Shown here: positions 261 to 56,138 of the stretch, piece after piece | Position numbering within the stretch: position 1 is the first letter of the stretch | Layout: each line of letters begins with the position of its first letter | Source: Escherichia coli | Lineage (GTDB): Bacteria > Pseudomonadota > Gammaproteobacteria > Enterobacterales > Enterobacteriaceae | Assembly (NCBI RefSeq): GCF_044324875.1 | Contig: NZ_CP172185.1 | Reading direction: 5' to 3' (one strand) | DNA length: 64,000 nucleotides | The notes under the pieces: generated by a model | The model's database searches: none | What the model was told of the DNA's origin: nothing | Seen by the model: the letters and a program-made list of their open reading frames with translations, nothing else | Translations under genes and position numbers: made by a program

Positions 261-262
261 GA

Positions 263-2425: not shown

Positions 2426-2436
2426 CGAGATCCGCT

Positions 2437-2470
2437 GTCGGATGCGATGCTGACGCATCTTATCCGACCT
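2437..2470. repeat. REP-type palindromic unit in wzc-wcaA intergenic region
   Basis: gtcggatgcgatgctgacgcatcttatccgac is an imperfect palindrome of the enterobacterial REP type. Confidence 0.55.
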
Positions 2471-2553
2471 CCGTTCACGCCGCATCCGGCAACAGAACCC
2501 GTAAACAAGCTTATAAACCGGCAGAACATCTCGACACTCCGGGAGAACAACCT

Positions 2554-3393: not shown

Positions 3394-3395
3394 AG

Positions 3396-3884
3396 ATGCT
3401 GGAAGATCTGCGCGCCAACAGCTGGAGTTTACGCCCGTGCTGCATGGTTCTTGCCTATCGCGTCGCTCATTTTTGTTCGGTGTGGCGCAAAAAGAACGTC
3501 CTCAACAATCTGTGGGCGGCCCCGCTGTTGGTGCTGTATCGCATTATTACCGAATGCTTTTTCGGTTATGAAATCCAGGCCGCCGCGACCATTGGCCGCC
3601 GCTTTACTATCCATCACGGTTACGCCGTAGTGATCAATAAAAACGTGGTAGCGGGGGATGATTTCACCATTCGCCACGGCGTCACTATCGGCAATCGTGG
3701 TGCCGATAACATGGCATGTCCACACATTGGCAACGGCGTCGAACTCGGTGCCAACGTCATTATTCTTGGTGATATCACGATTGGTAACAACGTCACCGTG
3801 GGCGCGGGCAGCGTGGTGCTCGACTCTGTCCCGGACAACGCGCTGGTGGTGGGAGAAAAAGCGCGAGTGAAGGTAATTAAATGA
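3396..3884 (+). CDS. wcaB: Colanic acid O-acetyltransferase WcaB (hexapeptide-repeat)
   Basis: 162-aa ORF with left-handed beta-helix hexapeptide repeats (IGNGVELGANVIILGDITIGNNVTVGAGSVV); conserved position. Confidence 0.88.
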   Translation: MLEDLRANSWSLRPCCMVLAYRVAHFCSVWRKKNVLNNLWAAPLLVLYRIITECFFGYEIQAAATIGRRFTIHHGYAVVINKNVVAGDDFTIRHGVTIGNRGADNMACPHIGNGVELGANVIILGDITIGNNVTVGAGSVVLDSVPDNALVVGEKARVKVIK

Positions 3885-5098
3885 ATATTCTGCAATTTAA
3901 TGTGCGACTGGCGGAAGGCGGGGCAGCAGGTGTGGCGTTAGATCTCCACCAGCGCGCGCTGCAACAGGGGCTGGCGTCACATTTTGTCTACGGCTACGGC
4001 AAAGGCGGCAAAGAGAGCGTCAGCCATCAGAACTATCCGCAGGTCATCAAACATACGCCGCGGATGACCGCGATGGCGAACATTGCGTTGTTTCGTCTGT
4101 TTAATCGCGATCTGTTTGGCAATTTCAATGAGTTATATCGCACTATTACCCGCACACCGGGTCCGGTGGTCCTGCATTTTCATGTGCTGCACAGCTACTG
4201 GTTGAATCTTAACAGCGTGGTGCGCTTTTGCGAAAAAGTGAAAAACCATAAACCGGATGTCACTCTGGTCTGGACGCTGCACGACCACTGGAGCGTTACC
4301 GGACGCTGCGCCTTTACCGACGGTTGCGAAGGCTGGAAAACGGGCTGCCAGAAATGCCCGACCTTAAATAATTATCCGCCGGTGAAGATTGATCGCGCAC
4401 ACCAACTGGTGGCGGGCAAACGGCAGTTATTCCGTGAGATGCTGGCACTGGGCTGTCAGTTTATTTCCCCCAGCCAGCATGTGGCTGACGCTTTCAATAA
4501 CCTGTACGGTCCAGGGCGTTGCCGGATTATCAATAACGGTATTGATATGGCAACCGAAGCGATTTTGGCGGACTTGCCTCCGGTACGCGAAACCCAGGGC
4601 AAGCCGAAAATCGCGGTGGTGGCGCATGATCTGCGTTACGACGGCAAAACTAACCAGCAACTGGTACGCGAGATGATGGCGCTGGGTGACAAAATCGAAC
4701 TGCATACTTTCGGTAAGTTCTCACCGTTCACCGCTGGTAATGTGGTCAATCACGGCTTTGAAACCGACAAACGTAAACTGATGAGCGCGCTCAACCAGAT
4801 GGATGCGCTGGTATTCAGTTCTCGCGTCGATAACTACCCGCTGATTTTGTGTGAGGCGTTATCGATTGGCGTGCCGGTGATTGCCACCCATAGCGATGCG
4901 GCGCGTGAAGTGCTGCAAAAATCCGGTGGTAAAACCGTCAGCGAAGAAGATGTGCTGCAGCTGGTGCAGTTAAGCAAACCGGAAATCGCACAGGCGATAT
5001 TTGGTACCACGCTGGCTGAGTTCAGCCAGCGCAGCCGCGCCGCCTACAGTGGACAACAGATGCTGGAGGAGTATGTCAACTTCTATCAGAATCTGTAG
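3881..5098 (+). CDS. wcaC: Colanic acid glycosyltransferase WcaC (GT4-like)
   Basis: 405-aa ORF; start overlaps wcaB stop (ATGA), implying translational coupling; conserved gene order. Confidence 0.88.
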   Translation: MNILQFNVRLAEGGAAGVALDLHQRALQQGLASHFVYGYGKGGKESVSHQNYPQVIKHTPRMTAMANIALFRLFNRDLFGNFNELYRTITRTPGPVVLHFHVLHSYWLNLNSVVRFCEKVKNHKPDVTLVWTLHDHWSVTGRCAFTDGCEGWKTGCQKCPTLNNYPPVKIDRAHQLVAGKRQLFREMLALGCQFISPSQHVADAFNNLYGPGRCRIINNGIDMATEAILADLPPVRETQGKPKIAVVAHDLRYDGKTNQQLVREMMALGDKIELHTFGKFSPFTAGNVVNHGFETDKRKLMSALNQMDALVFSSRVDNYPLILCEALSIGVPVIATHSDAAREVLQKSGGKTVSEEDVLQLVQLSKPEIAQAIFGTTLAEFSQRSRAAYSGQQMLEEYVNFYQNL

Positions 5099-6290
5099 CT
5101 ACCTGCTGCTGCCGCTGATTTACCTGTTGGTTAACGTCAAAATCGCCCAGCTTGGCGAAAGTTTCCCCATCACCATCGTCACTTTTTTACCTGTCTTGTT
5201 ACTGCTGTTTTTAGAACGCATCAGCGTTAAAAAATTGATGATTGCCTTAGGGATTGGTGCGGGACTCACGGCGTTTAACTATCTGTTTGGTCAGTCGTTG
5301 GATGCCAGTAAATACGTCACTTCAACCATGCTGTTTGTCTATATTGTGATCATTATTGGCATGGTGTGGAGTATTCGCTTTAAAACGATTTCGCCACACA
5401 ACCATCGCAAGATATTACGTTTCTTTTATCTGGTGGTCGGGTTGGTGGTGGCGCTGGCGGCGGTGGAGATGGCGCAAATTATCCTCACCGGCGGCAGCAG
5501 TATTATGGAATCGATTTCGAAATATCTGATTTACAGCAACAGCTATGTGCTGAATTTCATCAAATTCGGCGGCAAGCGCACGACAGCACTTTATTTCGAA
5601 CCGGCATTTTTCGCTCTGGCATTAATCTCAATTTGGCTCAGCATCAAACAGTTTGGTATCAAAACCCCTAAAACCGATGCTATGATTCTCGCAGGGATAA
5701 TATTATCCGGATCGTTTTCAGGGGTTATGACCTTTATCCTGTTTTATTTGCTGGAGTGGGCATTTCAATATCTGAATAAAGAGGCGATTAAGAAAAAGTT
5801 ACCGTTAGCATTGATTTCTCTGGCTGTATTCCTGGTTGGTGTGGTAATCGCGTTTCCTTATATTTCCACCCGTCTGGGCGATTTAGGTACGGAAGGATCG
5901 TCATCATATTATCGTATTGTCGGTCCGCTGGTGATGGTCGGTTATTCTTTGACCCATATTGACGGTGTAGTCAGATTTGGCTCACTTTATGAATATGTCG
6001 CATCATTCGGAATATTTAACGGTGCGGATGTCGGAAAAACCATAGACAATGGTTTGTATCTGCTGATTATTTATTTTTCCTGGTTCGCGGTGTTTTTATC
6101 ACTGTGGTACATGGGGAAAGTGATAAAAATGATGATCAACGCTTTTGGTGATAACCGCAATTTTCGCGTGCAATTATATCTTTTTACTCCGGTATCGCTG
6201 TTTTTTACCGGTTCGATATTTAGCCCGGAATATGCATTTTTAATCGTCTGTCCGTTTATTTTGCGAAAAGCGTTAAATATTACGAGGTAA
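5073..6290 (+). CDS. wcaD: Colanic acid polymerase WcaD (multi-pass membrane protein)
   Basis: ORF 5001..6290; an internal in-frame ATG at 5073 ([12 protein letters not shown]...) gives a 405-aa hydrophobic protein and avoids a 98-bp overlap with wcaC. Confidence 0.82.
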
Positions 6291-6300
6291 GAATAAGAAC

Positions 6301-7047
6301 ATGTTGCTTAGCATAATCACTGTCGCGTTTCGTAACCTCGAAGGGATAGTCAAAACACACGCCTCGCTGGCGCATCTGGCGCAGGCGGACGATATCAGCT
6401 TCGAATGGATTGTTGTCGATGGCGGTTCCAATGATGGCACCCGTGAGTATCTGGAAAATCTCAATGGTATCTTTAACCTACGCTTTGTCAGCGAGCCAGA
6501 TAATGGTATCTACGACGCCATGAACAAAGGCATTGCGATGGCACAAGGCAAGTTCGCGCTGTTTCTCAACTCGGGCGATATTTTTCATCAGGATGCCGCA
6601 AATTTTGTCCGTAAGTTAAAAATGCAAAAAGATAACGTGATGATCACCGGCGATGCGCTGCTGGATTTTGGCGACGGGCATAAAATTAAACGTAGCGCCA
6701 AACCGGGTTGGTATATTTATCACAGCCTGCCCGCCAGTCATCAGGCGATATTTTTTCCGGTATCCGGCTTGAAAAAATGGCGTTATGACCTGGAATATAA
6801 AGTTTCTTCCGACTACGCGCTGGCAGCCAAAATGTATAAAGCCGGTTATGCATTTAAAAAACTCAATGGCCTGGTGTCTGAATTTTCTATGGGTGGAGTA
6901 TCTACCACCAATAATATGGAATTATGTGCTGACGCCAAAAAAGTCCAACGGCAGATATTGCACGTGCCTGGCTTTTGGGCTGAATTATCCTGGCATTTAC
7001 GCCAACGTACTACCTCAAAGACGAAAGCCTTATATAACAAAAGCTGA
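6301..7047 (+). CDS. wcaE: Colanic acid glycosyltransferase WcaE (GT2 family)
   Basis: 248-aa ORF; GT2-like N-terminus (ITVAFRN...[10 protein letters not shown]); conserved order. Confidence 0.88.
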
Positions 7048-7062
7048 ATATAAGGGAAAACG

Positions 7063-7611
7063 ATGCAGGATTTAAGTGGTTTCTCGGTACCGAAAGGGTT
7101 CCGGGGCGGCAACGCTATTAAAGTGCAATTGTGGTGGGCAGTACAGGCAACATTATTTGCCTGGTCGCCGCAAGTATTGTATCGCTGGCGGGCTTTTTTA
7201 TTACGTTTATTCGGCGCAAAAATAGGAAAAAACGTAGTTATTCGTCCGTCAGTAAAAATTACCTATCCGTGGAAATTAACTTTAGGTGATTACGCGTGGG
7301 TCGGCGATGAGGTCAATTTATATACCCTCGGTGAAATAACCATTGGCGCACATTCTGTGATATCGCAAAAAAGTTATTTATGCACCGGTAGCCACGACCA
7401 TGCAAGTCAACATTTCACCATTAACGCCACGCCTATTGTGATTGGCGAGAAATGCTGGCTGGCGACAGATGTTTTTGTTGCCCCTGGCGTCACGATCGGC
7501 GACGGCACCGTCGTGGGTGCGCGAAGCAGTGTTTTTAAATCGCTTCCGGCAAATGTGGTTTGCCGGGGGAATCCCGCAGTGGTGATACGCGAACGCGTTG
7601 AAACTGAATAA
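7063..7611 (+). CDS. wcaF: Colanic acid acetyltransferase WcaF (hexapeptide-repeat)
   Basis: 182-aa ORF with hexapeptide-repeat region (VAPGVTIGDGTVVGARSSV). Confidence 0.88.
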   Translation: MQDLSGFSVPKGFRGGNAIKVQLWWAVQATLFAWSPQVLYRWRAFLLRLFGAKIGKNVVIRPSVKITYPWKLTLGDYAWVGDEVNLYTLGEITIGAHSVISQKSYLCTGSHDHASQHFTINATPIVIGEKCWLATDVFVAPGVTIGDGTVVGARSSVFKSLPANVVCRGNPAVVIRERVETE

Positions 7612-7637
7612 ATTCAAAAAATACAGAGGAATAAGAC

Positions 7638-8759
7638 ATGTCAAAAGTCGCTCTCATCACCGGTGTAACCGGACAAGACGGTTCTTACCTGGCAGAGTTT
7701 CTGCTGGAAAAAGGTTACGAGGTGCATGGTATTAAGCGTCGTGCATCGTCATTCAACACCGAGCGCGTGGATCACATTTATCAGGATCCGCACACCTGCA
7801 ACCCGAAATTCCATCTGCATTATGGCGACCTGAGTGATACCTCCAACCTGACGCGTATTTTGCGTGAAGTGCAGCCGGATGAAGTGTACAACCTGGGCGC
7901 AATGAGCCACGTTGCGGTTTCTTTTGAGTCACCGGAATATACCGCAGACGTCGATGCGATGGGTACGCTACGCCTGCTGGAGGCGATCCGCTTCCTCGGT
8001 CTGGAAAAGAAAACCCGTTTCTATCAGGCTTCCACCTCTGAACTGTACGGTCTGGTGCAGGAAATTCCGCAGAAAGAGACCACGCCGTTCTACCCGCGAT
8101 CTCCGTATGCGGTCGCCAAACTGTACGCCTACTGGATCACCGTTAACTACCGCGAATCCTACGGCATGTACGCCTGTAACGGTATTCTCTTCAACCATGA
8201 ATCCCCGCGCCGCGGCGAAACCTTCGTTACCCGCAAAATCACCCGCGCAATCGCCAACATCGCTCAGGGGCTGGAGTCGTGCCTGTACCTCGGCAATATG
8301 GATTCCCTGCGCGACTGGGGCCATGCCAAAGACTACGTAAAAATGCAGTGGATGATGCTGCAACAGGAACAGCCGGAAGATTTCGTTATCGCGACCGGCG
8401 TTCAGTACTCCGTGCGTCAGTTCGTGGAAATGGCGGCAGCACAGCTGGGTATCAAACTGCGCTTTGAGGGCACGGGCGTTGAAGAGAAGGGTATTGTGGT
8501 TTCCGTCACCGGGCATGACGCGCCGGGCGTGAAACCGGGTGATGTGATTATCGCCGTTGACCCGCGTTACTTCCGTCCGGCAGAAGTTGAAACGCTGCTC
8601 GGTGACCCGACCAAAGCGCACGAAAAACTGGGCTGGAAACCGGAAATCACCCTCAGAGAGATGGTGTCTGAAATGGTGGCTAATGACCTCGAAGCGGCGA
8701 AAAAACACTCTCTGCTGAAATCTCACGGCTACGACGTGGCGATCGCGCTGGAGTCATAA
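7638..8759 (+). CDS. gmd: GDP-mannose 4,6-dehydratase
   Basis: 373-aa ORF; Rossmann motif [15 protein letters not shown]; SDR catalytic YAVAK; conserved order before fcl. Confidence 0.95.
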
Positions 8760-8761
8760 GC

Positions 8762-9727
8762 ATGAGTAAACAACGCATTTTTATCGCTGGCCATCGCGGG
8801 ATGGTCGGTTCTGCCATCAGGCGGCAGCTCGAACAGCGCGGTGATGTGGAACTGGTATTACGCACCCGCGACGAGCTGAACCTGCTGGACAGCCGCGCCG
8901 TGCATGATTTCTTTGCCAGCGAACGTATTGACCAGGTCTATCTGGCGGCGGCGAAAGTGGGCGGCATTGTTGCCAACAACACGTATCCGGCGGATTTCAT
9001 CTACCAGAACATGATGATTGAGAGCAACATCATTCACGCCGCGCATCAGAACGACGTGAACAAACTGCTGTTTCTCGGATCGTCCTGTATCTACCCGAAA
9101 CTGGCAAAACAGCCGATGGCAGAAAGCGAGTTATTGCAGGGTACGCTGGAGCCGACCAACGAGCCTTACGCCATTGCCAAAATCGCCGGGATCAAACTGT
9201 GCGAATCTTACAATCGCCAGTACGGACGCGATTACCGCTCGGTCATGCCGACCAACCTGTACGGGCCGCACGACAACTTCCACCCGAGTAACTCGCATGT
9301 GATCCCTGCATTGCTGCGTCGCTTCCACGAGGCGACGGCACAGAATGCGCCGGACGTGGTGGTGTGGGGCAGCGGTACGCCGATGCGCGAATTTCTGCAT
9401 GTCGATGATATGGCGGCGGCGAGCATTCATGTCATGGAGCTGGCGCACGAAGTCTGGCTGGAGAACACCCAGCCGATGCTGTCGCACATTAACGTCGGCA
9501 CGGGCGTTGACTGCACTATCCGCGAGCTGGCGCAAACCATCGCCAAAGTGGTGGGTTACAAAGGTCGGGTGGTTTTTGATGCCAGTAAACCGGATGGTAC
9601 ACCGCGCAAACTGCTGGATGTGACGCGCCTGCATCAGCTTGGCTGGTATCACGAAATCTCACTGGAAGCGGGGCTTGCCAGCACTTACCAGTGGTTCCTT
9701 GAGAATCAAGACCGCTTTCGGGGGTAA
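8762..9727 (+). CDS. fcl: GDP-L-fucose synthase (GDP-4-keto-6-deoxymannose epimerase/reductase)
   Basis: 321-aa ORF; N-terminal [10 protein letters not shown] nucleotide-binding motif; YAIAK catalytic motif. Confidence 0.95.
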
Positions 9728-23095: not shown

Positions 23096-24100
23096 ATGAA
23101 AGTAATTGTAAATAATTTTTTTGATGGTATTTTGAAAAGAGGAATACCGATCTATACTTCTGAACTTGTGCAAAAGTTAAGAGACAATAATGTTCAGGTT
23201 ATTTATGTTGCATGTCCAAAAGCATTCCATAAGCTGCCTTCATGGTTTCTGAATGTTCTTTTTATAATAGTAGAGCAGCTTTTAATACCAATTATGGGTA
23301 TATTTTATAGAACTAAGTATAATATATATCCCTATAATAGTAGTTCCATCATTGACTTGTTATTAGGTAAGGCAATTGTTATAATTCATGACTTCATTAG
23401 TCTTAAGAAAAATAAACGAAATCTTGCTGCCATTTATGTGAAAGTCTGTATTTATTTTTCATCTTTTTTAGCAAAGAAAGTAATATTTATTTCTCAAAGC
23501 ACTCAGCGAGTATCTAAGAGAATATCGCTATTTAAGTGTATAGAATCTATCCTGCTCCCAAATCCATTTTTCTCATTTGAGAAAATTGCTAATGTTACCG
23601 AAATAAAAGATCTTGGATATTTACTTCTAGTTTCAGGTTTAGGGGATAATAAGGATCTAGGCACAGCTCTGGACTATTATTTTTCAATCCCAAGGGAAGA
23701 AAGAATACCATTAAAAATATTAGGTTGTGGGAATGGTATTAGCAAGGTTAACGACTTAATTGATGGGCGGGATACAGATAAAGAAATTGAAATTATTGGT
23801 TTTGTTTCTTTAGAGGAAGTCGTCAAACTATATTGTAATTCTAAAATTGTTTGGGCTCATTCGCTTGCCGAGGGGTATGGAAGGACTTTAGCTGAAGCAA
23901 AACTCACATGCAAAAATGTTATATGCACACGGATCTCTGCTTTCCGCGAACAAAAGGATTCGAATATTTTCTTTTATACTTACTATTCTGAGTATTATGA
24001 AGTCTATTCATACTTGGTAGATAATTCACCCAGTGTCGAAAGGAAAGCTCTGCATGAACATATTTTATTTGAAAATGAATTGAGAAAGATTTATGAGTAA
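23096..24100 (+). CDS. O-antigen glycosyltransferase (GT4-like, probable mannosyltransferase)
   Basis: ORF 23063..24100; start taken at ATG 23096 (MKVIVNNFF...). AT-rich with Lys/Ile/Asn-rich codon usage; C-terminal EGYGRTLAEAKLTCKNVICT resembles the GT4 E-x7-E region. Confidence 0.7.
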   Translation: MKVIVNNFFDGILKRGIPIYTSELVQKLRDNNVQVIYVACPKAFHKLPSWFLNVLFIIVEQLLIPIMGIFYRTKYNIYPYNSSSIIDLLLGKAIVIIHDFISLKKNKRNLAAIYVKVCIYFSSFLAKKVIFISQSTQRVSKRISLFKCIESILLPNPFFSFEKIANVTEIKDLGYLLLVSGLGDNKDLGTALDYYFSIPREERIPLKILGCGNGISKVNDLIDGRDTDKEIEIIGFVSLEEVVKLYCNSKIVWAHSLAEGYGRTLAEAKLTCKNVICTRISAFREQKDSNIFFYTYYSEYYEVYSYLVDNSPSVERKALHEHILFENELRKIYE

Positions 24101-25295
24101 TATTGATATAAATAAGAAACAGATATTAGTTTTGACTCCACGGTTCCCGTTTCCTGTCATTGGTGGGGATCGATTACGTATCTATAAGATCTGTAAAGAA
24201 CTGTCTAAGCATTATGATCTTACGTTGCTGAGTCTGTGTGATAAACGCGAAGAGCTCAACTATGAATATGATCGTGAAGTTTTTAGTAGTGTTCACAGAG
24301 TATATCTTTCAAAGAAAAAATCTATTTTAAATGTCATATTCTCTTTGTTTTCAAATACTCCCCTACAGATTGGGTATTATAAATCTAAAGAATTTGAAGA
24401 TAAACTTAAGCAGTTATTACCTGAACATTCTGCAACTCTTTCACATTTGATAAGGGTTGGTGATTATGTGAAAGAGAATAAAGATATAAATTTTTTAGAG
24501 ATGACCGATGCCATTTCACTTAATTATAAACGAGTAAAGGAAAAAGCATCTTTATTGAGTTTAAAAACATTTGTATATTCTTTTGAACAAAAAAGACTCG
24601 AACGATATGAGCGAACTATAAATAACAAGTTCAGCTTGACTACTTTGGTATCACAGGTTGACTCCGATTATTTATATCCAGACCGTCCGAATAATGTATT
24701 AGTCTGTGGAAATGGTGTTGATGCCGTTAGCTTACCTTTTTCAGAACGAAAAATAGCTAAAGATAAAAAGATAACCCTTGTATTTATAGGTAATTTATAT
24801 TCTTTGCAAAATATGGATGGTGTGAGATGGTTCACCAAGGAAGTTTTACCATTTCTTAACAAGCATGGTAATTTTGAATTTAAGGTCATCGGACGTATTA
24901 CAGATAAAGATAAGAGTTGGTTAGAAAGCCAGCCTGGCGTTGTTGTCACAGGTGAAGTTGATAGCATAACTTATGCAGCAGCTGATGGGCATATTGGTGT
25001 ATGTCCTATTAGATTAGGGGCAGGTATCCAAAATAAGGTACTTGAATATATGGCGTTGGGATTACCTTGTATCTCTTCTACTGTAGGCTTTGAAGGCTTG
25101 GGAGCAGAGGAGGGTAAGGAGATTTATGTTGCCAATACAAAAGAAGAATATTTACGTGTATTAAATTATTTTATAACAAATCTGGATAAATATACCGAAA
25201 CAGCATTAGTTGCGAAAAAGTTTATCGGTGAGAATTTTTCATGGGAAGCTAAATTGAGCCCATATATCCAGAAAATTAAGGAGTCTGTTAAATAA
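24093..25295 (+). CDS. O-antigen glycosyltransferase (GT4 family)
   Basis: 400-aa ORF; GT4-like C-terminal region ([38 protein letters not shown]); low GC. Confidence 0.75.
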
Positions 25296-25296
25296 A

Positions 25297-26712
25297 ATGA
25301 TTATCCCAATTATTATGGCCGGTGGTTCTGGTACTCGCTTATGGCCTCTTTCGCGTTCGTTATACCCGAAACAATTTTTATCATTGATTAATGAAAATAG
25401 TTTGCTCCAGGAAACGTTGAAGAGACTTGATGGATTAAATTGTTTGCCTCCTGTCATTGTTAGCAATAATGAGCATAGATTTATTGTTGCTGAACAATTG
25501 CGACAGTTCGGTGTGGATGACTTCCAGATTATTCTAGAACCTGTAGGTAGAAATACTGCGCCCGCCGTTGCGCTGGCTGCTCTAAAGTCTCTAGAACTCC
25601 ATGGCGATCATCATATGCTGGTTCTTGCTGCTGACCATGCTATTCAGGATATTGAAGCCTTCCATGCAGCTGTTTTAGCTGCAGAACAAGAGTCCGTTGA
25701 CAATAAGTTAGTGACTTTTGGCATCGTCCCGACCAAACCTGAAACTGGGTATGGCTATATTAAAAAGGGCGAACAAGTTAAAAACTCTGTATTTAAAGTA
25801 AATTCTTTCGTCGAAAAACCTGATTTAGAAACGGCTAAAAATTATCTCGAACAAAAATGCTATTTGTGGAATAGTGGTATGTTCATGTTCAAGGCGAGCG
25901 TATATTTAGATGAATTGAAAAAATTTCGCCCTGATATTTTAGCAGCGTGTAAAGAGTCGCTTTCCAGTGCTAGTACTGATCTAGATTTTATCAGATTAAA
26001 TTCTGATGTCTTTGCAGAATGTCCCGATGAGTCAATTGATTATGCGGTAATGGAAAAAACTCAGGATTGTGTAGTTATTCCACTTGATGCTGACTGGAGT
26101 GACATCGGTTCATGGACATCACTTTGGGAAATATCAGAGAAAGATGAACATGAAAACGTATCGCATGGCGATGTAATTAACTATAACAGCAGGAACAACT
26201 ACATTTACTCTGAAGGTTCACTGATCAGCACTGTAGGAGTTAATAACCTTATTATAGTTCAAACTAAAGATGCGCTCCTGGTAGCACAGCAAGACAACGT
26301 ACAAGACATAAAGAAGATTGTCGAAATTCTTAAAAAGCAAAAACGTAGCGAACATATATCCCATCGCGAAGTCTATCGTCCTTGGGGACGTTATGATTCT
26401 GTAGAACGTGGCGACCGTTATCAGGTAAAGCGTATTACCGTTAAGCCTGGTGAATGTCTCTCAACACAAATGCATCATCATCGAGCTGAGCATTGGGTGG
26501 TTGTCGCTGGTACTGCAAAGGTGACTTGCGGCGAACGCACTTTTTTCGTCACTGAAAATGAGTCAACTTTCATACCAATTGGCACAGTTCATACCTTGGA
26601 AAATCCAGGAAAGATACCATTAGAAGTAATTGAGATTCAGTCGGGTGTATATCTAGGTGATGATGATATTGTGCGCCTAAGTGATAAATATGGTCGTGTT
26701 GAGGATAAATAA
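25297..26712 (+). CDS. manC: Mannose-1-phosphate guanylyltransferase (O-antigen copy)
   Basis: 471-aa ORF; [13 protein letters not shown] motif and cupin C-terminus, highly similar to cpsB in protein but AT-rich at the nucleotide level. Confidence 0.9.
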
Positions 26713-26716
26713 TTAT

Positions 26717-28138
26717 ATGAATATTACCAATGATGTAATTAAAAATAGCGGAATTGCATTTGGTACAAGTGGTGCTCGTGGATTAGTGAAAGATTTTACA
26801 CCCAACGTGTGTGCTGCATTCACTTATGCTTTTATCGATGTAATGATGAAGGATTTTTCTTTTAAAGAGGTTGCGCTCGCAATAGATAATCGCCCAAGCA
26901 GCTATGCTATGGCACAAGCTTGCGCAGCAGCATTGTTGGAATGTAGTATTAAACCTATTTACTACGGTGTAATTCCAACTCCAGCTTTGGCAAATCAAGC
27001 GATTGCCGATGGGATTCCTGCAATAATGGTTACTGGAAGTCATATTCCATTTGATAGAAATGGTTTGAAATTCTATCGTCCAGACGGGGAAATTTCAAAA
27101 GAAAATGAGAACAGCATTATACATGCTGAAAAAGAGTATCCTGATGTAACTGTATTGCCAGAATTACAATGTTCAAAGCGTGCCGCTGATACTTATATCG
27201 AGAGAAACACTTCAATTTTTTCAAATATATTTAAAGGTAAACGTATCGGGATTTATGAACATTCAAGTGCGGGACGGGATCTTTATTCAGAAATATTCAG
27301 TAAGCTTGGTGCTGAAGTTGTAAGTATTGGTAGAAGTGATGAGTTTGTGCCTATTGATACTGAAGCAGTATCAAAAGAAGATGAAGAAAAAGCTTTACAC
27401 TGGTCATCTGAGTATGACCTCGATATGATTTTTTCTACCGATGGTGATGGCGATCGTCCTTTGGTTGCTGACGAAAATGGCGTTTGGTTACGGGGTGATA
27501 TATTAGGACTATTTTGCTCAAAGGCAATGAATATTGAAGCGGTAGCTGTACCTGTAAGTTGTAATACGGTTATTCAGACTTGCGGGTGGTTTAATCATGT
27601 AACGCTGACTAAAATTGGTTCACCATACGTCATTTCAGCGTTTGATTCTCTGAATAATAGTTTTGATAGGGTTGCAGGGTTTGAGGCTAACGGTGGGTAT
27701 CTTTTAGGTAGCGATGTAAATTATAACAGCGGTATGATTAAAGCGCTTCCAACAAGAGATGCTGTTTTGCCTGCTTTAATGGTACTGGCACTGGCTATAA
27801 AAAATAATGTGACTATTTCAAAACTCTTGGCGGAGTTGCCACCACGATTTACCTACTCAAATAGAGTTCAAAATTTTGCAACAAGCAAAAGTAAAAGCAT
27901 TATCGCGTCAGCTCAAGAAAATCCTCAAGAATTTATCGAAAGAATAGGCTTTGTCGATCTTCATGTACAATCGGTGGATACAATTGACGGGTTAAGATTG
28001 ACACTAAGTGATGGTTCAATAATCCATTTGCGACCGTCAGGCAACGCACCTGAATTGCGATGCTATGCAGAAGCAGATAACATAATAAAAGCTGAAAAAT
28101 TAGTGTTAGAAGTTTTGCATAAAGTTACTCTTTTGTAA
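26717..28138 (+). CDS. manB: Phosphohexomutase of the PGM/PMM superfamily (O-antigen phosphomannomutase, ManB-type role)
   Basis: ORF 26681..28138; start taken at ATG ~26717 ([22 protein letters not shown]...). [11 protein letters not shown] phosphoserine-loop-like motif and DGDGDRP metal-binding motif. Start codon uncertain by a few codons. Confidence 0.75.
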
Positions 28139-28321
28139 AAAAATATAAACTTTTTTCTACTCTTGAGCGGTTTGTCATTTAACCGCTCAGTAATAGATTG
28201 TTTATAAATTGTTTATATTTAGCATTGGTGTTTTTATTTGCGTTCATCCCGAATAAGAGATTGTAAAATTAACTGTTTCTTATTTTTCAAATGAGTTACT
28301 TCACTAGTAAAGCTAATTACT

Positions 28322-29653
28322 ATGCATAAGCAATATTATTCATTATTGTGCAATAAAATACAGTTTAAACATCTGGCTATATATTTTTCTGTATTTCTTT
28401 CACTATCCTCATGTTTCTTGTGGGGAGGGGCGGATACATTTGTATCGCAAGTGTATATTGATATTTTAGCCACTATATCTACAGCGCTATTAGTTGTTTT
28501 GATGTTCTATTATTATATTAATAGAGTTCGCTATTTATCACTAACCTTACTTTTTGCATTCGTTTTTTCTTTGATTATTGGTTTGCCATCGATTTATCTT
28601 TACTATTTTAAAAACGCAAATCATGGGTTTGAAATAATTTGTATCTGGGGGATGTTGATCAATTCCATCCTTTACTTGCAAACAACAGAGACTGTCATAA
28701 AAGAAGAAAAAAGATATTTAACTAGTTTATTTTATATTTTGTTTTCTATTGTTGCACTGTGTCAATTATACAAAATATTAATTTATCTTATGTTTATATT
28801 GAATTCAGGAGAAGGGCATTTAGCAATTTATACTGAAAGCGAAGAATTGCTATCCCAAGTTCCATTTTTTATTCGTGCTATTAGTGGTTTTGCAGTTGTA
28901 ATGTCATTGTCCACTTTTTATTTTAAAACACCGACCTACATTAAAGTTATTGCATTTGTTTTACTTGCATCTGATTTAGCTATTGGAATACGTAATAAGT
29001 TTTTCTTTTCAGTGATTTGTATTTTTATACTATATATGTACTCTAATGAGTATAGAGTAAGAAATTTATTTAAGCAACTCTCAAAACCAATATTTCTCAT
29101 CGCCGGTTTTTTATGCTTCTCGATGGTATCGTATTTCCGTGAAGGGTACCAAATCGATTTTATGATTTATATTGGCATTGTTTTAGATTCGCTATCCTCT
29201 ACTCTTGGGGGGATGCAGAATTTGTTTGATATGCAATCATCAGGATGGGATCAACTTCATCCCGCTGTGGTATTCACACAAGTATTACCGCTAAGCGGTC
29301 TTGGTTTTCTTGATGATCAACAAATCGCAAAAGATTTTTCAATAATTGTTTTAGGTGATGTATCCTCTGGTATTGCGTTGTCATCTTCAGGATTGTTAGA
29401 GTCATCGTTGCTGAGTCTAAACTTGGGAGTGATTATTTATTTACTGTATTTATCAGGGGTGATGCTTTTTATTAAATGGGGACTAAATAATCAACGGATA
29501 ATAATAAACTTTGTTGCCATCTCCATGATATCTGGATTTTTTTATGCTGTTCGTGGTGAACTGATTTTGCCATTGGCTTTTCTTCTAAAATCATTGCCGA
29601 TTGTTCTTATATCTCCATTACTTGTTAAAAATAAAATTTATCATGGTCAGTAA
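28322..29653 (+). CDS. wzy: O-antigen polymerase Wzy (polytopic membrane protein)
   Basis: 443-aa very hydrophobic, low-GC ORF with many predicted TM segments; location in O-antigen cluster. Assignment is by context. Confidence 0.65.
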   Translation: MHKQYYSLLCNKIQFKHLAIYFSVFLSLSSCFLWGGADTFVSQVYIDILATISTALLVVLMFYYYINRVRYLSLTLLFAFVFSLIIGLPSIYLYYFKNANHGFEIICIWGMLINSILYLQTTETVIKEEKRYLTSLFYILFSIVALCQLYKILIYLMFILNSGEGHLAIYTESEELLSQVPFFIRAISGFAVVMSLSTFYFKTPTYIKVIAFVLLASDLAIGIRNKFFFSVICIFILYMYSNEYRVRNLFKQLSKPIFLIAGFLCFSMVSYFREGYQIDFMIYIGIVLDSLSSTLGGMQNLFDMQSSGWDQLHPAVVFTQVLPLSGLGFLDDQQIAKDFSIIVLGDVSSGIALSSSGLLESSLLSLNLGVIIYLLYLSGVMLFIKWGLNNQRIIINFVAISMISGFFYAVRGELILPLAFLLKSLPIVLISPLLVKNKIYHGQ

Positions 29654-29694
29654 GTGGTTTATTTTTCGACCAGGATCTCACCAGTAGGCATGAC

Positions 29695-30930
29695 ATGATC
29701 AAAGAAATTTTCTCCGATGGCATTTTTTCGCTATTTAATAAAATATGTTACTTCGGTTTTAAAACACTTGCAATAATTCTGATTACTCGTTCCTTAGGAG
29801 AAGATGTAGGCGGAGAGTTCATTTTTTTAGTTGGTTTTCTCGAAGTCCTTCGGGTGGTTACTGATTTTGGTGTGGATCTGTTTGTTATAAAAAAATATAA
29901 TGATTCTACAGATAAAATAAAACTATTAAATGTAACGTTTGCACAAAAAATTCTTTCTGGAGTAATTGTTTTACTACTGTTTTGTTTGTATTCTTTTGTT
30001 CAGGGTTATCAATATAATGTCTATATTCCTATTGTGTTAGCCTTACCTGTTGCTTTATTTTTTAATTTCTCAAATAGCTATTTTCAATCTCTCAATTCCA
30101 ATAAATCTCTCACGTTTCCGATCGCAATTGCATCTATTGCAACGTGTACGATCTTCGCTATTCAGTATTTTTTAAACGTTAAATTTAACGCATGGGATTA
30201 CCTGTGTGTTGAACTATTATTCGTATCGCTGGTTACACTAAAACTATTCGTTAGTGTCAAGTTTAGGTTTATTAGAACGTCAGCTTTTGATGTGCTAATG
30301 TCAATTCTTTCTTTATATAAATATACATTAAGTATAGGTCTTACAGCTGTTGTTGTAATTATTTATAGCCGTATAGATAATTTTTATCTCAAGACATTTG
30401 CCCCAGGGGATCTTGCAGCATATGGCCAGATATTTAGGATGGTTGATCCACTGGTTATGGTTTCTTCTGTATTTTCTACAGTTGCCTATGCAAGATTTTG
30501 CCGAATTAACTTACAAGAAAAAAATGCTTTTACTAAGGTGTTTCAGTTCCTGTTATGTATTGTGGCATATGGCGTGCTGAGTTCATTAGTTTATTTCTTT
30601 ATAATAAAATACCTGGGTCATTTTGTATTGATTTCTAATGTTAATAATGATTTCTTGATAATGATGTTCTTGATTGTTGCATGTGTGAAATGTATCAATG
30701 GTGGTACAACTGCAATAATTCAGTCACAGGGGTTTTATAAAGTGGGTTTGTATGTTTCGTATGTTTGCATTTTGACATCGATACCAACTATGTATTTCTT
30801 AATAATGAAGTACGGTGTTAAAGGTGCTGCTATGACGATTCTGCTTGTAGAGTGTATTAGTTTCATATTACTTCTCTGCAGCTTTTTTATGATAAAAAAG
30901 ATGCGTCCTAAAAAAACATTCGAAATGTAA
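29695..30930 (+). CDS. wzx: O-antigen flippase Wzx
   Basis: 411-aa polytopic membrane ORF with the N-terminal pattern typical of polysaccharide-biosynthesis flippases; last gene before gnd. Confidence 0.7.
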   Translation: MIKEIFSDGIFSLFNKICYFGFKTLAIILITRSLGEDVGGEFIFLVGFLEVLRVVTDFGVDLFVIKKYNDSTDKIKLLNVTFAQKILSGVIVLLLFCLYSFVQGYQYNVYIPIVLALPVALFFNFSNSYFQSLNSNKSLTFPIAIASIATCTIFAIQYFLNVKFNAWDYLCVELLFVSLVTLKLFVSVKFRFIRTSAFDVLMSILSLYKYTLSIGLTAVVVIIYSRIDNFYLKTFAPGDLAAYGQIFRMVDPLVMVSSVFSTVAYARFCRINLQEKNAFTKVFQFLLCIVAYGVLSSLVYFFIIKYLGHFVLISNVNNDFLIMMFLIVACVKCINGGTTAIIQSQGFYKVGLYVSYVCILTSIPTMYFLIMKYGVKGAAMTILLVECISFILLLCSFFMIKKMRPKKTFEM

Positions 30931-31082
30931 TCAATGAGTCCTCTTTGAATAGAATTAGTTTGTTCTATTTATGAACACTTAGCTTGAGTAAGTTCTAACA
31001 TAGATTACTAATTGTTTGATACTATCTGCTTTACAAGCATAACCGCGTATGTCGCGGTGACCACACCTGACAGGAGTATGTA

Positions 31083-32489
31083 ATGTCCAAGCAACAGATC
31101 GGCGTCGTCGGTATGGCAGTGATGGGGCGCAACCTGGCGCTCAACATCGAAAGCCGTGGTTATACCGTCTCCGTCTTCAACCGCTCCCGCGAAAAAACTG
31201 AAGAAGTTGTTGCCGAGAACCCGGGTAAGAAACTGGTTCCTTATTACACGGTGAAAGAGTTTGTCGAGTCTCTTGAAACCCCTCGTCGCATCCTGTTAAT
31301 GGTGAAAGCAGGTGCAGGCACGGATGCTGCTATTGATTCCCTCAAACCATATCTCGATAAAGGTGACATCATCATTGATGGTGGTAACACCTTCTTCCAG
31401 GACACTATTCGTCGTAATCGTGAGCTTTCAGCAGAGGGCTTTAACTTCATCGGTACCGGTGTTTCCGGCGGTGAAGAGGGGGCGTTGAAAGGACCTTCCA
31501 TCATGCCTGGTGGGCAGAAAGAAGCCTATGAACTGGTTGCACCAATTCTGACCAAAATCGCCGCAGTAGCTGAAGACGGTGAGCCATGCGTTACCTATAT
31601 TGGTGCCGATGGCGCAGGTCACTATGTGAAGATGGTTCACAACGGTATTGAATACGGCGATATGCAGCTGATTGCTGAAGCCTATTCTCTGCTAAAAGGT
31701 GGCCTGAACCTCACCAACGAAGAACTGGCGCAGACTTTTACCGAGTGGAATAACGGTGAACTGAGCAGCTACCTGATCGACATCACCAAAGATATCTTCA
31801 CCAAAAAAGATGAAGACGGTAACTACCTGGTTGATGTGATTCTGGATGAAGCAGCAAACAAAGGTACGGGCAAATGGACCAGCCAGAGTGCGCTGGATCT
31901 CGGCGAACCGCTGTCGCTGATAACCGAGTCTGTGTTTGCACGTTATATCTCTTCTCTGAAAGATCAGCGCGTTGCCGCGTCTAAAGTTCTCTCTGGCCCG
32001 CAAGCGCAGCCAGCAGGCGACAAGGCTGAGTTCATCGAAAAAGTTCGCCGTGCGCTGTATCTGGGCAAAATCGTTTCTTACGCTCAGGGCTTCTCTCAGC
32101 TACGCGCCGCGTCTGAAGAGTACAACTGGGATCTGAACTACGGCGAAATCGCGAAGATTTTCCGTGCTGGCTGCATCATCCGTGCGCAGTTCCTGCAGAA
32201 AATCACCGATGCTTATGCCGAAGATCCGCAGATCGCTAACCTGCTGCTGGCTCCGTACTTCAAGCAAATTGCTGATGACTACCAGCAGGCGCTGCGTGAT
32301 GTCGTTGCTTATGCAGTACAAAACGGTATCCCGGTTCCGACCTTCGCCGCTGCGGTTGCCTATTACGATAGCTACCGTGCCGCTGTTCTGCCTGCGAACC
32401 TGATCCAGGCACAGCGTGACTATTTCGGTGCACATACTTATAAGCGCATTGATAAAGAAGGTGTGTTCCATACTGAATGGCTGGATTAA
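31083..32489 (+). CDS. gnd: 6-phosphogluconate dehydrogenase, decarboxylating
   Basis: 468-aa ORF; N-terminal [19 protein letters not shown]-binding motif; higher GC than the flanking O-antigen genes. Confidence 0.97.
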
Positions 32490-35134: not shown

Positions 35135-36421
<1,287 letters not shown>

Positions 36422-48011: not shown

Positions 48012-48030
48012 TCATCTTTTCTAATAATCA

Positions 48031-48067
48031 ACCGGAGTCGAATGAATATTTGGCTCCGGTTTTTTTA
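48031..48067 (+). terminator. Rho-independent terminator downstream of plaP
   Basis: accggagtcgaatgaatatttggctccggt hairpin followed by T7. Confidence 0.65.
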
Positions 48068-48189
48068 TTCTTTTTTATCGAAATCCTCATTAATAACCAT
48101 TTGTTCTAATTTAGAGAATTTGGTTATTGGTCTGCATTCCACCAGTCATGAATAATTTCCCCATTAACATTCATCTGGTTAATTAATTT

Positions 48190-49248
48190 ATGTTTTCAAT
48201 GATATTAAGCGGGCTAATTTGTGGTGCTCTGCTGGGATTTGTCATGCAGCGTGGGCGTTTTTGCCTGACAGGTGGTTTTCGCGATATGTATATCGCGAAA
48301 AATAATCGCATGTTTTACGCCTTGCTGATTGCAATTTCGGTACAAAGCGTGGGGGTTTTTGCGTTAATTCAGGCGGGCCTACTGACTTACGAAGCCGGGG
48401 CGTTCCCGTGGCTTGGTACTGTTATAGGTGGGTATCTTTTCGGGCTGGGAATTGTTCTGGCGGGTGGATGTGCCACCGGGACCTGGTATCGCGCGGGTGA
48501 GGGATTGATCGGCAGTTGGATCGCGCTTTTCACTTATATGGTGATGAGTGCGGTGATGCGTTCTCCACACGCCAGTGGTTTAAATCAAACCTTGCAGCAC
48601 TACAGTACTGAACATAACTCTATTGCTGAGACTTTTAATTTGTCTGTGTGGCCGTTGGTTACCGTTTTGCTGGTGATAACGCTCTGGGTGGTGATGAAAG
48701 AGTTGAAGAAGCCAAAACTCAAAGTCGCGACCTTACCGCCGCGCCGAACCGGGATCGCTCATATTCTGTTTGAAAAACGCTGGCATCCCTTTGTCACTGC
48801 TGTACTCATCGGTTTGATTGCGCTTTTAGCCTGGCCCCTGAGTGAAGCAACCGGACGCATGTTTGGGTTAGGAATCACTTCCCCAACGGCCAATATTCTG
48901 CAATTTCTGGTCGCGGGTGACGTGAAATACATTAACTGGGGCGTTTTCCTGGTGTTAGGGATCTTCGTGGGGTCATTTATTGCAGCCAAAGCGAGCCGTG
49001 AGTTCCGCGTTCGCGCTGCTGATGCACAAACAACATTACGTAGCGGGTTAGGTGGTGTACTGATGGGCTTCGGTGCCAGCATTGCAGGTGGTTGCTCTAT
49101 CGGTAATGGACTGGTCATGACTGCAATGATGACCTGGCAGGGCTGGATTGGCCTTGTATTTATGATTCTCGGAGTCTGGACTGCGTCCTGGCTTGTGTAT
49201 GTTCGACCGCAGCGTAAGGCGCGACTGGCAACTGCTGCGGCAAATTAA
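48190..49248 (+). CDS. yeeE: YeeE/YedE-family inner membrane transporter (thiosulfate uptake, TsuA-like)
   Basis: 352-aa polytopic ORF with repeated Cys-containing motifs (GRFCLTGGFRD, GGCATGTWYRAGEG, GGCSIGNG). Confidence 0.88.
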   Translation: MFSMILSGLICGALLGFVMQRGRFCLTGGFRDMYIAKNNRMFYALLIAISVQSVGVFALIQAGLLTYEAGAFPWLGTVIGGYLFGLGIVLAGGCATGTWYRAGEGLIGSWIALFTYMVMSAVMRSPHASGLNQTLQHYSTEHNSIAETFNLSVWPLVTVLLVITLWVVMKELKKPKLKVATLPPRRTGIAHILFEKRWHPFVTAVLIGLIALLAWPLSEATGRMFGLGITSPTANILQFLVAGDVKYINWGVFLVLGIFVGSFIAAKASREFRVRAADAQTTLRSGLGGVLMGFGASIAGGCSIGNGLVMTAMMTWQGWIGLVFMILGVWTASWLVYVRPQRKARLATAAAN

Positions 49249-49261
49249 GTAAGGTGTAAAG

Positions 49262-49489
49262 ATGGCGATTAAAAAGCTGGATGTGGTGACGCAGGTCTGT
49301 CCGTTTCCACTCATAGAAGCAAAAGCAGCACTGGCAGAAATGGCCAGCGGCGATGAGTTGGTAATTGAGTTTGATTGCACCCAGGCAACTGAAGCAATCC
49401 CACAGTGGGCGGCAGAAGAAGGGCATGCCATCACCGATTATCAGCAGATTGGCGATGCAGCGTGGAGCATCACCGTTCAAAAAGCCTGA
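49262..49489 (+). CDS. yeeD: TusA-like sulfurtransferase YeeD (TsuB)
   Basis: 75-aa ORF with the TusA CPxP motif (VCPFPLIEAKAALAEM). Confidence 0.9.
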   Translation: MAIKKLDVVTQVCPFPLIEAKAALAEMASGDELVIEFDCTQATEAIPQWAAEEGHAITDYQQIGDAAWSITVQKA

Positions 49490-49500
49490 CTCAAAATTGT

Positions 49501-49524
49501 CCTCCGCCGTACCAGCGGCGGAGG
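49501..49524. terminator. Probable bidirectional terminator hairpin between convergent yeeD and sbcB
   Basis: cctccgccg-taccag-cggcggagg perfect 9-bp stem; no strong T-run on either side. Confidence 0.45.
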
Positions 49525-49531
49525 CTTCACA

Positions 49532-50959
49532 TTAGACAATCTCTTCCGCGTACTGCCAAAGCGCTTTTAACAGCGCCACTTTTTCTTTATCGTCGGCATA
49601 CTGCTGCGCCAGCATCTGAATCTCTTCTGCATAACCCTGCAAAAACTCTGGCGCGAAGACCTGGCGGCGGTGCTCCAGCCAGCGTTGCTGCTCGGCATAA
49701 TCCAGCGTCCCCGGGAAGTTGCGCGCCCGATAATTGAACAACAGCTTTTCAATTCGTTTATCAACAAAAGTGATATCCAGTGCCGGTAAATTACGCGGCT
49801 CGGTTTCAAGCACAATTTTCATTGCTGCGCGATCGGCGTCACTGAAAAAGCCATTATAAAGCTGTGCATCCACGTTATCTGAAGGCGTAAACGGTTCGGC
49901 TTCCGCGAATATCGCCACCACTTTTTCACGCACTTGCGGATTTTCACGCAGAATTTTCAGGTTATCGAGGCAATGCTGACGATTAATTCCCAGTCGGTCG
50001 GCATCTTCCGGGCGTAGCGTATTCGCCTGGGCCAGCACCGGACATTTATTGATATGCACCAGTTTAACCGGAACGGCGGCGTTATCGCCAAGATCGGCTT
50101 TTGCGGTATATAGACGCTCGCGCAATGTGTCGCTATCCAGTTCCAGTAATGGCGAAATGTCTCCTGCCAAATCCACCATAATTACGGCATTGCGATTTTC
50201 AGGATGCCACGCCAGCGGTGCCACCCAGCTGGTATTGCCGCGCCATGCCCCAAACATTCCGGAAACGTGAACCAGGGGTTTCATCTGCGGAACATCAATC
50301 AACGCCATCAGTTTGTGTTTATTACGATGGGTAAAGAGATAATCAAACAGGCGTGGCTGACGCGTTTTTACCAGTTTCGCCATCGCAATAGTGGCGTACA
50401 CATCAGCCATCGCATCGTGGGCGTTGCTATGTTCAATACCATTCGCTTTGGTTAAATGCTCAAGGCGAAAGCTCGGTAGACCGTCATCATTTTCAGGCCA
50501 GTTTATTCCTTCCGGGCGCAGGGCATAACAGGCACGCATAACATCCAGTAAATCCCAGCGCGAGTTATCATGCTGCCAGCTCCAGGCGTAAGGATCGTAG
50601 AAATTACGATAAAAAACGTTGCGTGTGACTTCGTCGTCGAAACGCACATTGTTGTAGCCCAGAATACAGGTCTTCGGTACGGTAAAAAGCGAGTGAATAC
50701 GGGCGGCAAATGCGGCTTCGTTTTCTCCTTTCGCCCGAGCTTCCTGCGGGGTAATACCGGTAATTAATACTGCTCCAGGCAGGGGTAAATAGTCATCCGC
50801 GGGCTTGCAGTAAAAGACTTCGGGTTCGCCGATGACATTGAATTCGTCATCGGTGCGAATGGCTGCGAACTGTGCAGGGCGATCTAACGCGGGGTGCGTG
50901 CCAAAGGTTTCGTAATCGTGAAACAAAAAGGTAGATTGTTGCTTACCGTCATTCATCAT
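49532..50959 (-). CDS. sbcB: Exodeoxyribonuclease I
   Basis: ORF 49532..51007; start taken at the Met giving MMNDGKQQSTFLFHDYETFGT... (475 aa); DnaQ-like exonuclease motif DYETFG. Confidence 0.93.
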   Translation of the reverse strand: MMNDGKQQSTFLFHDYETFGTHPALDRPAQFAAIRTDDEFNVIGEPEVFYCKPADDYLPLPGAVLITGITPQEARAKGENEAAFAARIHSLFTVPKTCILGYNNVRFDDEVTRNVFYRNFYDPYAWSWQHDNSRWDLLDVMRACYALRPEGINWPENDDGLPSFRLEHLTKANGIEHSNAHDAMADVYATIAMAKLVKTRQPRLFDYLFTHRNKHKLMALIDVPQMKPLVHVSGMFGAWRGNTSWVAPLAWHPENRNAVIMVDLAGDISPLLELDSDTLRERLYTAKADLGDNAAVPVKLVHINKCPVLAQANTLRPEDADRLGINRQHCLDNLKILRENPQVREKVVAIFAEAEPFTPSDNVDAQLYNGFFSDADRAAMKIVLETEPRNLPALDITFVDKRIEKLLFNYRARNFPGTLDYAEQQRWLEHRRQVFAPEFLQGYAEEIQMLAQQYADDKEKVALLKALWQYAEEIV

Positions 50960-52334: not shown

Positions 52335-52452
52335 CCTTTCTTTTGCAGCAGACTGGCAGGAGTGCGAGTCTGCTCGCATAATCAACACTCATTCCTTGTG
52401 GTTTTAATATTGCAACCACACTGTATATAAAAACAGTAATAATGGAGGCGTC

Positions 52453-54683: not shown

Positions 54684-54696
54684 TTCCTGTTTTATT

Positions 54697-55227: not shown

Positions 55228-55231
55228 AACG

Positions 55232-56136: not shown

Positions 56137-56138
56137 CG

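Follow-up and report, generated by a model that had tools for sequence, protein, structure and literature searches.

Why does one stretch of the Escherichia coli chromosome carry two gene pairs for the supply of GDP-mannose, and is one pair a copy of the other? We address this question for the O-antigen genes manC and manB (25297-28138) in a 64,000-nucleotide stretch of contig NZ_CP172185.1 (assembly GCF_044324875.1), hereafter the window, which also holds the colanic acid pair cpsB/cpsG. On the combined evidence of gene content, homology, motif conservation, base composition and synteny, we consider it highly probable (roughly 93%) that the pairs constitute two separately transcribed routes from mannose 6-phosphate (Man-6-P) to GDP-mannose, and that the O-antigen pair is foreign, with a mutase, ManB, of the RfbK type; what the enzymes do, how the modules are regulated and which way the transfer went enter this reading as predictions.

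Both pairs were recovered as open reading frames (ORFs) on the plus strand, where the preliminary description of this DNA had placed them. The colanic acid manC, cpsB (11432..12868; 478 aa; GC 55.4%), encodes a mannose-1-phosphate guanylyltransferase that scores 1114 bits against the NCBIfam model NF012004 (cut-off 859), and the colanic acid manB, cpsG (13058..14431; about 456 aa; GC 55.1%; NCBIfam NF011943), encodes a phosphomannomutase (PMM) of the XanA/AlgC type. About 11 kb away, and alike in orientation and gene order, lie the O-antigen manC (25297..26712; 471 aa; GC 40.0%), annotated through TIGR01479 as a mannose-1-phosphate guanylyltransferase/type II phosphomannose isomerase (PMI), and manB (26717..28138; 473 aa; GC 38.1%), a putative RfbK-type PMM with four PGM_PMM domains. 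The most likely start of manB is the ATG at 26717 rather than the GTG at 26681 proposed by the ORF finder, because RefSeq and the N-termini of homologues agree on it; the TTG that the ORF finder gives for cpsG, at 13013, is an upstream extension of the start at 13058.

At the level of superfamily and fold, the two mutases are alike. The four Pfam domains PGM_PMM_I to IV score above the gathering threshold in CpsG and ManB, and the functional loops can be followed from one protein to the other. The catalytic phosphoserine loop of domain I, [TS]-[AG]-S-H-[NI]-P, is T-A-S98-H-N-P in CpsG (from residue 97) and TGS108HIP in ManB; the metal-binding loop of domain II, D-G-D-x-D-R, is DGDFDR at 246 and DGDGDR at 242, respectively; and the phosphate-binding loop of domain IV, R-x-S-x-x-x-P, is RSSNTEP at 423 and RPSGNAP at 439. 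CpsG carries the motif FKAYDIRG, and ManB an alternative one. The sugar-binding loop of domain III reads GFE323ANGG in ManB, with the Glu retained and Asn where Ser stands in the GEMSGH-type loop, the consensus of AlgC-type enzymes with PMM and phosphoglucomutase (PGM) activity. All the mutase motifs quoted in the preliminary description were found in the two sequences. By the shared domains and the shared catalytic, metal-binding and phosphate-binding loops, CpsG and ManB are distant members of one superfamily, the alpha-D-phosphohexomutases, and not unrelated analogues. Their pairwise alignment gives only 24% identity over 378 aa (E 1e-7), which confirms that they are not close paralogues; the initial claim that they differ in family holds at the level of the subfamily and fails at that of the superfamily and fold.

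Database comparisons place the two mutases apart. Against NF011943, 'phosphomannomutase CpsG' (cut-off 801 bits), CpsG scores 1051.5 bits and ManB 22 bits, and because of this shortfall ManB is not filed in the CpsG/ManB subfamily. The PDB entries nearest to CpsG are XanA (5bmn/6nn2, E 3e-170) and AlgC (1k35, E 2e-56); the 24 PDB matches of CpsG at E <= 1e-10 do not include 4hjh. The entry nearest to ManB is 4hjh itself (E 1e-95, residues 10-463), followed by GlmM-type and archaeal phosphosugar mutases (E 1e-23 to 1e-14), and AlgC is matched at E 2e-5 only, over about 210 residues. Judged from these matches, CpsG and ManB occupy reciprocal, non-overlapping sequence neighbourhoods. Both can be aligned with GlmM of E. 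coli K-12, ManB at 24.5% identity (E 5e-20) and CpsG at 26.5% (E 2e-22); since these values compare with E ~1e-7 between ManB and CpsG, the divergence between ManB and CpsG is no shallower than that of either one from GlmM. ManB had originally been called PGM-like. Comparison with Pgm and GlmM of E. coli K-12 led us to reject that identity: Pgm aligns with ManB over a local stretch of 61 residues only (E 3e-4), the Pgm model NF005737 of NCBIfam gives no match to ManB, and ManB is RfbK-like, with GlmM nearer to it than Pgm. The GlmM model TIGR01455 scores ManB at 109.4 bits, below its cut-off of 447.55.

An annotated RfbK of Salmonella (record NZ_CP022016.1) is 61% identical to ManB over 474 aa, and the same RfbK is 25% identical to CpsG. 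With this full-length similarity and with a location in an O-antigen cluster adjoining manC, the window's ManB can be assigned to the RfbK-type phosphomannomutases. The enzymes that have been characterised from Salmonella group B are, we presume, the products of rfbK and rfbM. The phosphomannomutase and GDP-mannose pyrophosphorylase of that group are reported to have been produced as recombinant proteins, purified and characterised (Elling 1996, via PMC5765510). In a protein database search with ManB, at least 8000 candidates were scored, each with E <= 1e-20; more distant superfamily members will be among them. Among the 120 matches listed are a Salmonella protein at 75% identity and many proteins of Photobacterium, Aeromonas, Vibrio, Aliivibrio, Moritella and Citrobacter at 62-68%, the latter all called phosphomannomutase in their source records, and a tblastn search of plasmid records found relatives at about 45% identity on alpha-proteobacterial plasmids. 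These matches delineate a large RfbK-type lineage, widespread in Vibrionaceae, Aeromonas and alpha-proteobacteria. Across 123 aligned RfbK-type relatives, the ManB loops TGS108HIP, D242GDGDR, GFE323ANGG and R439-x-SGNAPE show no variation; with its four catalytic loops intact and invariant, ManB qualifies as an intact enzyme whose activity is predicted.

The two guanylyltransferases are homologous, as had been proposed: CpsB and ManC are identical at 285 of 473 aligned residues (60%, E = 0), both contain MAGGSGxRLWPLS, and the GC contrast between their genes (55.4% in cpsB vs 40.0% in manC) was likewise confirmed. The cupin C-termini had been described as near-identical, which overstates the case; the PMI/cupin domain is the best-conserved part at 69.6% identity, compared with 58% for the nucleotidyltransferase domain. 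CpsB comprises the Pfam domains NTP_transferase, beta-helix and MannoseP_isomer, and both proteins pass TIGR01479 (GDP-mannose pyrophosphorylase/type II PMI; cut-off 372.95), ManC with 754.6 bits and CpsB with 810.9 bits. Against the CpsB-specific model NF012004, ManC stays below the cut-off (706.9 bits vs 859). Seven ManC sequences are 52-66% identical to one another whichever type of ManB is their partner, so that ManC looks like one orthologous family, with the mutase partner exchanged between clusters. No pattern of partner-specific ManC clades was seen among these seven sequences, a sample too small for a firm statement.

Has the O-antigen pair then arisen as a tandem or segmental copy of cpsB/cpsG that has since diverged? 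Such an origin would suit the short distance between the pairs, their common orientation and order, and the clear homology of ManC and CpsB, and cpsG copies in the place of manB are real in other serogroups: in O157 Sakai, ManB and CpsG share 97% identity, which has been attributed to gene conversion or replacement (PMC3158064). The manC/manB module of the window has a different character. Its G+C content at third codon positions is 26-32%, as opposed to 61-64% in cpsB/cpsG, and its overall GC is 38-40%, as opposed to 55%, with 31-34% in the remaining O-antigen cluster. The longest exact DNA run common to the two modules is 12 nt, and the best local match, 73% over 164 nt, falls within manC/cpsB. 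ManB is closer to GlmM than to CpsG, and its relatives extend to Vibrionaceae, Aeromonas and alpha-proteobacteria. Moreover, the same six genes occur in the same order in Salmonella Logan SRR1384994, at 70-83% amino-acid identity, with the flanking galF and gnd at 94-96%. Given the depth of the ManB/CpsG divergence, the composition, the lack of shared DNA and the syntenic Salmonella locus, local duplication is excluded for practical purposes, and we regard it as effectively refuted, with hardly any probability left to it. Low GC in manBC has been recognised as a mark of horizontal origin (PMC3715488), and the backbone of the O77 group, to which the locus is assigned below, is also that of S. 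enterica O:6,14 (PMC4732683, PMC7685785). The GC contrast, the Salmonella synteny, a shared run of at most 12 nt and the separate mutase neighbourhoods bear out the independent origin that the preliminary description had suggested, and support a horizontal acquisition of manC/manB with the rest of the cluster, the direction of transfer being presumed.

Two other readings concern what the module does. In one of them, the O-antigen ManB would act on a different hexose phosphate, that of GlcN, GlcNAc or Glc, and cpsG would supply the mannose 1-phosphate (Man-1-P). Its best matches to curated hidden Markov models are indeed GlmM-type, all under cut-off, and its FEANGG sugar loop is unlike the GEMSGH type. 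However, manB accompanies manC, adjacent or one gene off, in all five of the O-antigen loci examined, its 61% match in Salmonella is annotated as RfbK, the depositors of 4hjh call that protein phosphomannomutase, and cps is under RcsA/RcsB control and poorly expressed at 37 °C. Besides housekeeping UDP-GlcNAc, the O77-group unit requires only GDP-mannose (PMC7685785), and the group B phosphomannomutase has, as noted above, been characterised as a recombinant enzyme. Taken together, these points make an activity on another hexose phosphate very improbable. The second reading, that the O-antigen module is a decaying, redundant remnant, dispensable given cpsB/cpsG, is suggested by the presence of two routes to one metabolite within 17 kb. 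It is scarcely credible in view of the intact manC and manB ORFs with invariant catalytic loops, the 99-100% conservation of the full-length module in 93 complete genomes and its maintenance in the Salmonella counterpart. We thus retain the reading of two functional routes with a foreign, RfbK-type O-antigen module, against which several points have nevertheless to be weighed. ManB passes no NCBIfam model, its best score being 170 bits for Arch_GlmM with a cut-off of 439, and its phosphomannomutase activity is predicted from the 61% identity to RfbK and the gene context. The GFEANGG loop, in departing from the GEMSGH type, bears on the substrate range (PMM only or PMM/PGM). The nearest relatives of ManB outside Enterobacteriaceae are just ~62-66% identical, and the independence of ManC from its mutase partner is drawn from seven sequences.

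How, then, would the two routes operate? The cpsB/cpsG pair of the colanic acid operon would provide GDP-mannose on the way to the GDP-fucose needed for colanic acid, and manC/manB, in a low-GC O-antigen operon 3' of a JUMPstart element, would serve the mannosyltransferases that build the Man3-GlcNAc unit. From the mechanism of the family, ManB, with phospho-Ser108 in TGSHIP and Mg2+ bound by D242/D244/D246, is expected to phosphorylate C1 of Man-6-P; the bisphosphate intermediate would then reorient and give back its C6 phosphate to leave Man-1-P, which ManC would convert with GTP into GDP-mannose for use by two glycosyltransferases. The role of ManB is taken by either of two anciently diverged subfamilies, the CpsG/XanA/AlgC type or the RfbK type.

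The JUMPstart element (22958..22996, plus strand), which contains GGCGGTAG and scores 59.2 bits against Rfam RF01707 (gathering score 35, E 1e-11), lies ~100 nt 5' of the first glycosyltransferase gene. Such elements are the mark of RfaH-dependent O-antigen operons, and the cps operon is poorly expressed at 37 °C. The latter is controlled by RcsA/RcsB (PMC13139461). Because of this difference between JUMPstart (RfaH) and RcsA/RcsB control, the two modules are likely to be under different expression regimes, and different regulation would be the standard explanation for the retention of both. Consensus scans of 22600-31200 for promoters (37 vs 37.2 in shuffled sequence) and terminators (6 vs 4.5) were uninformative.

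Near-identity to annotated genomes shows the window to be E. coli chromosome with the layout wzb/wzc - wca (colanic acid) - galF - O-antigen cluster - gnd - ugd - wzzB - his operon - pdu. The O-antigen cluster is bordered 5' by galF (21809-22702) and 3' by gnd (31083-32489), and its gene order is GT-GT-manC-manB-wzy-wzx (GT, glycosyltransferase), with DNA 99.9-100% identical to that of E. coli 042 and A10. All six genes are on the plus strand, and the ORF listing contains no minus-strand ORF of at least 100 aa overlapping 24000-29500. From the ORFs and the RefSeq annotation of the identical genes in strains 042 and A10, the first two genes encode a glycosyltransferase (23096..24100; GC 31%) and a GT4-family glycosyltransferase (24093..25295; GC 34%), both mannosyltransferase candidates. 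The last two are named in RefSeq, in the same strains, as the O17/O44/O73/O77/O106-family O-antigen polymerase gene wzy (28322..29653) and flippase gene wzx (29695..30930). Of 5426 complete E. coli genomes, 93, including 042 and O17_K12a, carry identical or 99.9%-identical DNA, and the NCBI Prokaryotic Genome Annotation Pipeline (PGAP) names wzy and wzx in those genomes 'O17/O44/O73/O77/O106 family'. By this gene content and near-identity, the window locus is the O-antigen cluster of the O17/O44/O73/O77/O106 group (O77g). The serogroup within O77g is not distinguishable from this locus (PMC7685785); according to published work, these serogroups are set apart by side-branch glucosylation, for which prophage-borne gtr genes at other places in the genome are held responsible. 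The backbone of the repeat unit is Man-Man-Man-GlcNAc, two of whose mannoses have been proposed to be added by a single transferase (PMC7685785). Because the backbone has this composition, manC and manB are the sole sugar-precursor genes of the cluster. Two glycosyltransferase genes only, in 23096-25295, stand against the three mannosyl linkages of the backbone. The best curated match of the second (24093..25295) is to the PEP-CTERM/XrtA-system model TIGR03087, at 209 bits, which is under the cut-off.

Beyond O77g, a sensitive DNA search recovered RfbK-type manB in 332 of the 5426 complete E. coli genomes (~6%), the 93 O77g genomes being joined by 239 with 60-80% DNA identity. Three further clusters were inspected, those of O84, of O126 and of an untyped E. 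coli strain; in each, the RfbK-type manB shares its O-antigen locus with manC; the O84 and O126 clusters also contain gmd and fcl, and in O84 a GT2 gene lies between manC and manB. Matches to the module at 90-95% identity in 60 E. coli genomes, which could have reflected a near-identical manC beside another manB, were discarded, being 53-bp matches to cpsB only. A megablast search with cpsG gave 5710 places in 4691 genomes, and therefore roughly a thousand extra cpsG-like copies in the collection. RfbK-type manB is also found on an E. coli IncF NDM-5 resistance plasmid (NZ_CP048012.1), where positions 1-9569 are a fragment of a polysaccharide cluster with genes for Stealth, EpsG and GT4 proteins, gmd, fcl, gmm, manC, a GT2 gene and manB, with IS26 at the end; the ManC encoded there shares 87% identity, and the ManB 73%, with its counterpart in the E. 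coli O84 cluster, and related copies occur on Citrobacter portucalensis plasmids.

The observation of two modules is correct and already known, being textbook knowledge for enterobacterial O-antigen clusters. For Salmonella LT2, a mannose pathway in each of the neighbouring cps and rfb clusters was described in 1991, and a publication on the O77-group cluster followed in 2007 (Wang et al. 2007, via PMC4732683, PMC7685785). No new question is opened here for specialists. Nevertheless, the locus offers a clean illustration of one pathway step taken by two anciently diverged subfamilies, with a partner, ManC, that is orthologous throughout, and there is a practical value for annotation, in that the O-antigen manB should be labelled an RfbK-type phosphomannomutase, neither a CpsG orthologue nor Pgm-like. 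A further consequence can be imagined for the stability of the locus. In the long-term evolution experiment with E. coli B, seven rearrangements arose by recombination between manB and cpsG, which are 96% identical, and the intervening region was lost in 10 of 12 populations (PMC4173774); in the O14 type strain, the O-antigen cluster was deleted by the same manB-cpsG route (PMC7685785). O77-group strains have no manB-cpsG direct repeat, since the longest exact run shared with the cpsG module is 12 nt. It is conceivable, though we think it rather unlikely, that an RfbK-type manB is more than a historical accident, that it could make the O-antigen locus structurally more stable and that the two lineages might differ in substrate range or activator dependence. 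If so, the absence of a cpsG/manB repeat would mean no repeat-driven deletion of the O antigen and no O157-type homogenisation of manB, which could affect the stability of the locus.

Several features elsewhere in the window deserve mention. An insertion sequence (IS), a 1272-bp copy of IS621 absent from strain A10, occupies 35139-36410 in the wzzB-hisIE intergenic region. It belongs to the IS110 family, is 99.8% identical to annotated IS621 and encodes on the minus strand (35244-36224) a 326-aa transposase (NF033542, 256 bits); its non-coding end at ~36225-36410 is where the guide ('bridge') RNA described for the IS family would be sought. IS621 matches are present in 2244 of the 5426 complete E. 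coli genomes, the genomes concerned having a median of five such places. Between plaP and sbcB, a segment of 1.5 kb (48014-49533) is likewise not in A10; its ORFs of 352 aa (48190-49248) and 75 aa (49262-49489) are probably yeeE and yeeD, by position as in O157 Sakai. Length polymorphisms relative to A10 were seen at ~2428-2540, in the wzc-wcaA intergenic region, and at 17388-17575, between wzxC and wcaK, where a unit of ~91-96 bp is repeated. Indels associated with repetitive extragenic palindromic (REP) elements have been reported in these two intergenic regions around O157 clusters (PMC3158064). At the end of the window (~52000-64000), provided that it is collinear with A10 (98.7% identity), lies the minus-strand pdu operon for a propanediol-utilisation microcompartment, which is not in all E. 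coli.

Among known systems, a close parallel in arrangement is Salmonella rfbM/rfbK beside cpsB/cpsG (Stevenson et al.), where, as in the window, a colanic acid pair and an O-antigen pair lie in neighbouring clusters. RfbK shares the mutase lineage of the window's ManB (61% identity, compared with 25% between RfbK and CpsG), and the GC of rfbM/rfbK is, as in the window, intermediate to low, at 40-41% in record NZ_CP022016.1 and a reported 36-41% for manBC (PMC3715488). The Salmonella clusters differ in being galactose-initiated, the O77 group being GlcNAc-initiated, and the window's ManC is just 58% identical to RfbM. The group-D-type rfb cluster of NZ_CP022016.1 contains genes for CDP-paratose synthase and CDP-paratose 2-epimerase, rfbN, manC, rfbK and an undecaprenyl-phosphate galactose phosphotransferase gene, and its mutase, found by tblastn of plasmid records, is annotated as 'O-antigen biosynthesis phosphomannomutase RfbK'. 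This 473-kb record, entered as 'plasmid unnamed1' of Salmonella serovar India, includes a chromosomal rfb-gnd-ugd-wzzB-his region with a paratose/tyvelose O-antigen cluster, and looks like a misassigned chromosome segment. Its O-antigen type seems odd for serovar India. Another close system is the locus of Salmonella Logan SRR1384994, of the kind reported as O:6,14, in which the order GT-GT-manC-manB-wzy-wzx between galF and gnd is that of the window; ManB is 75% and ManC 83% identical, a divergence at the species level, and the Salmonella locus has, ahead of gnd, additional transposase-like genes with DDE_3 and DUF4096 domains.

E. coli O157 Sakai also has a second, O-antigen GDP-mannose pair (ECs_2836, ECs_2835) beside the colanic acid cluster, and its ManC is ~56-61% identical to both CpsB and the window's ManC, the value for CpsB being 61%. 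Its ManB, in contrast, is CpsG-type and 97% identical to CpsG, which has been put down to cpsG having replaced or converted the gene (PMC3158064), and manB/cpsG repeats of 96% identity have deleted the O-antigen region elsewhere (PMC4173774; O14, PMC7685785), whereas the window has no such repeat. The best solved relative of ManB, 4HJH of Brucella melitensis, has the TGSHIP, DGDxDR, FEANGG and RxSGNAPE loops in common with it, but is alpha-proteobacterial and has visibly diverged further than the enterobacterial relatives; the protein, whose structure is unpublished, has been termed a phosphoglucomutase paralogue of ManBcore (PMC7762576). P. aeruginosa AlgC and Xanthomonas XanA, finally, share with ManB the superfamily, the four-domain fold and the chemistry, and belong to the lineage of CpsG.

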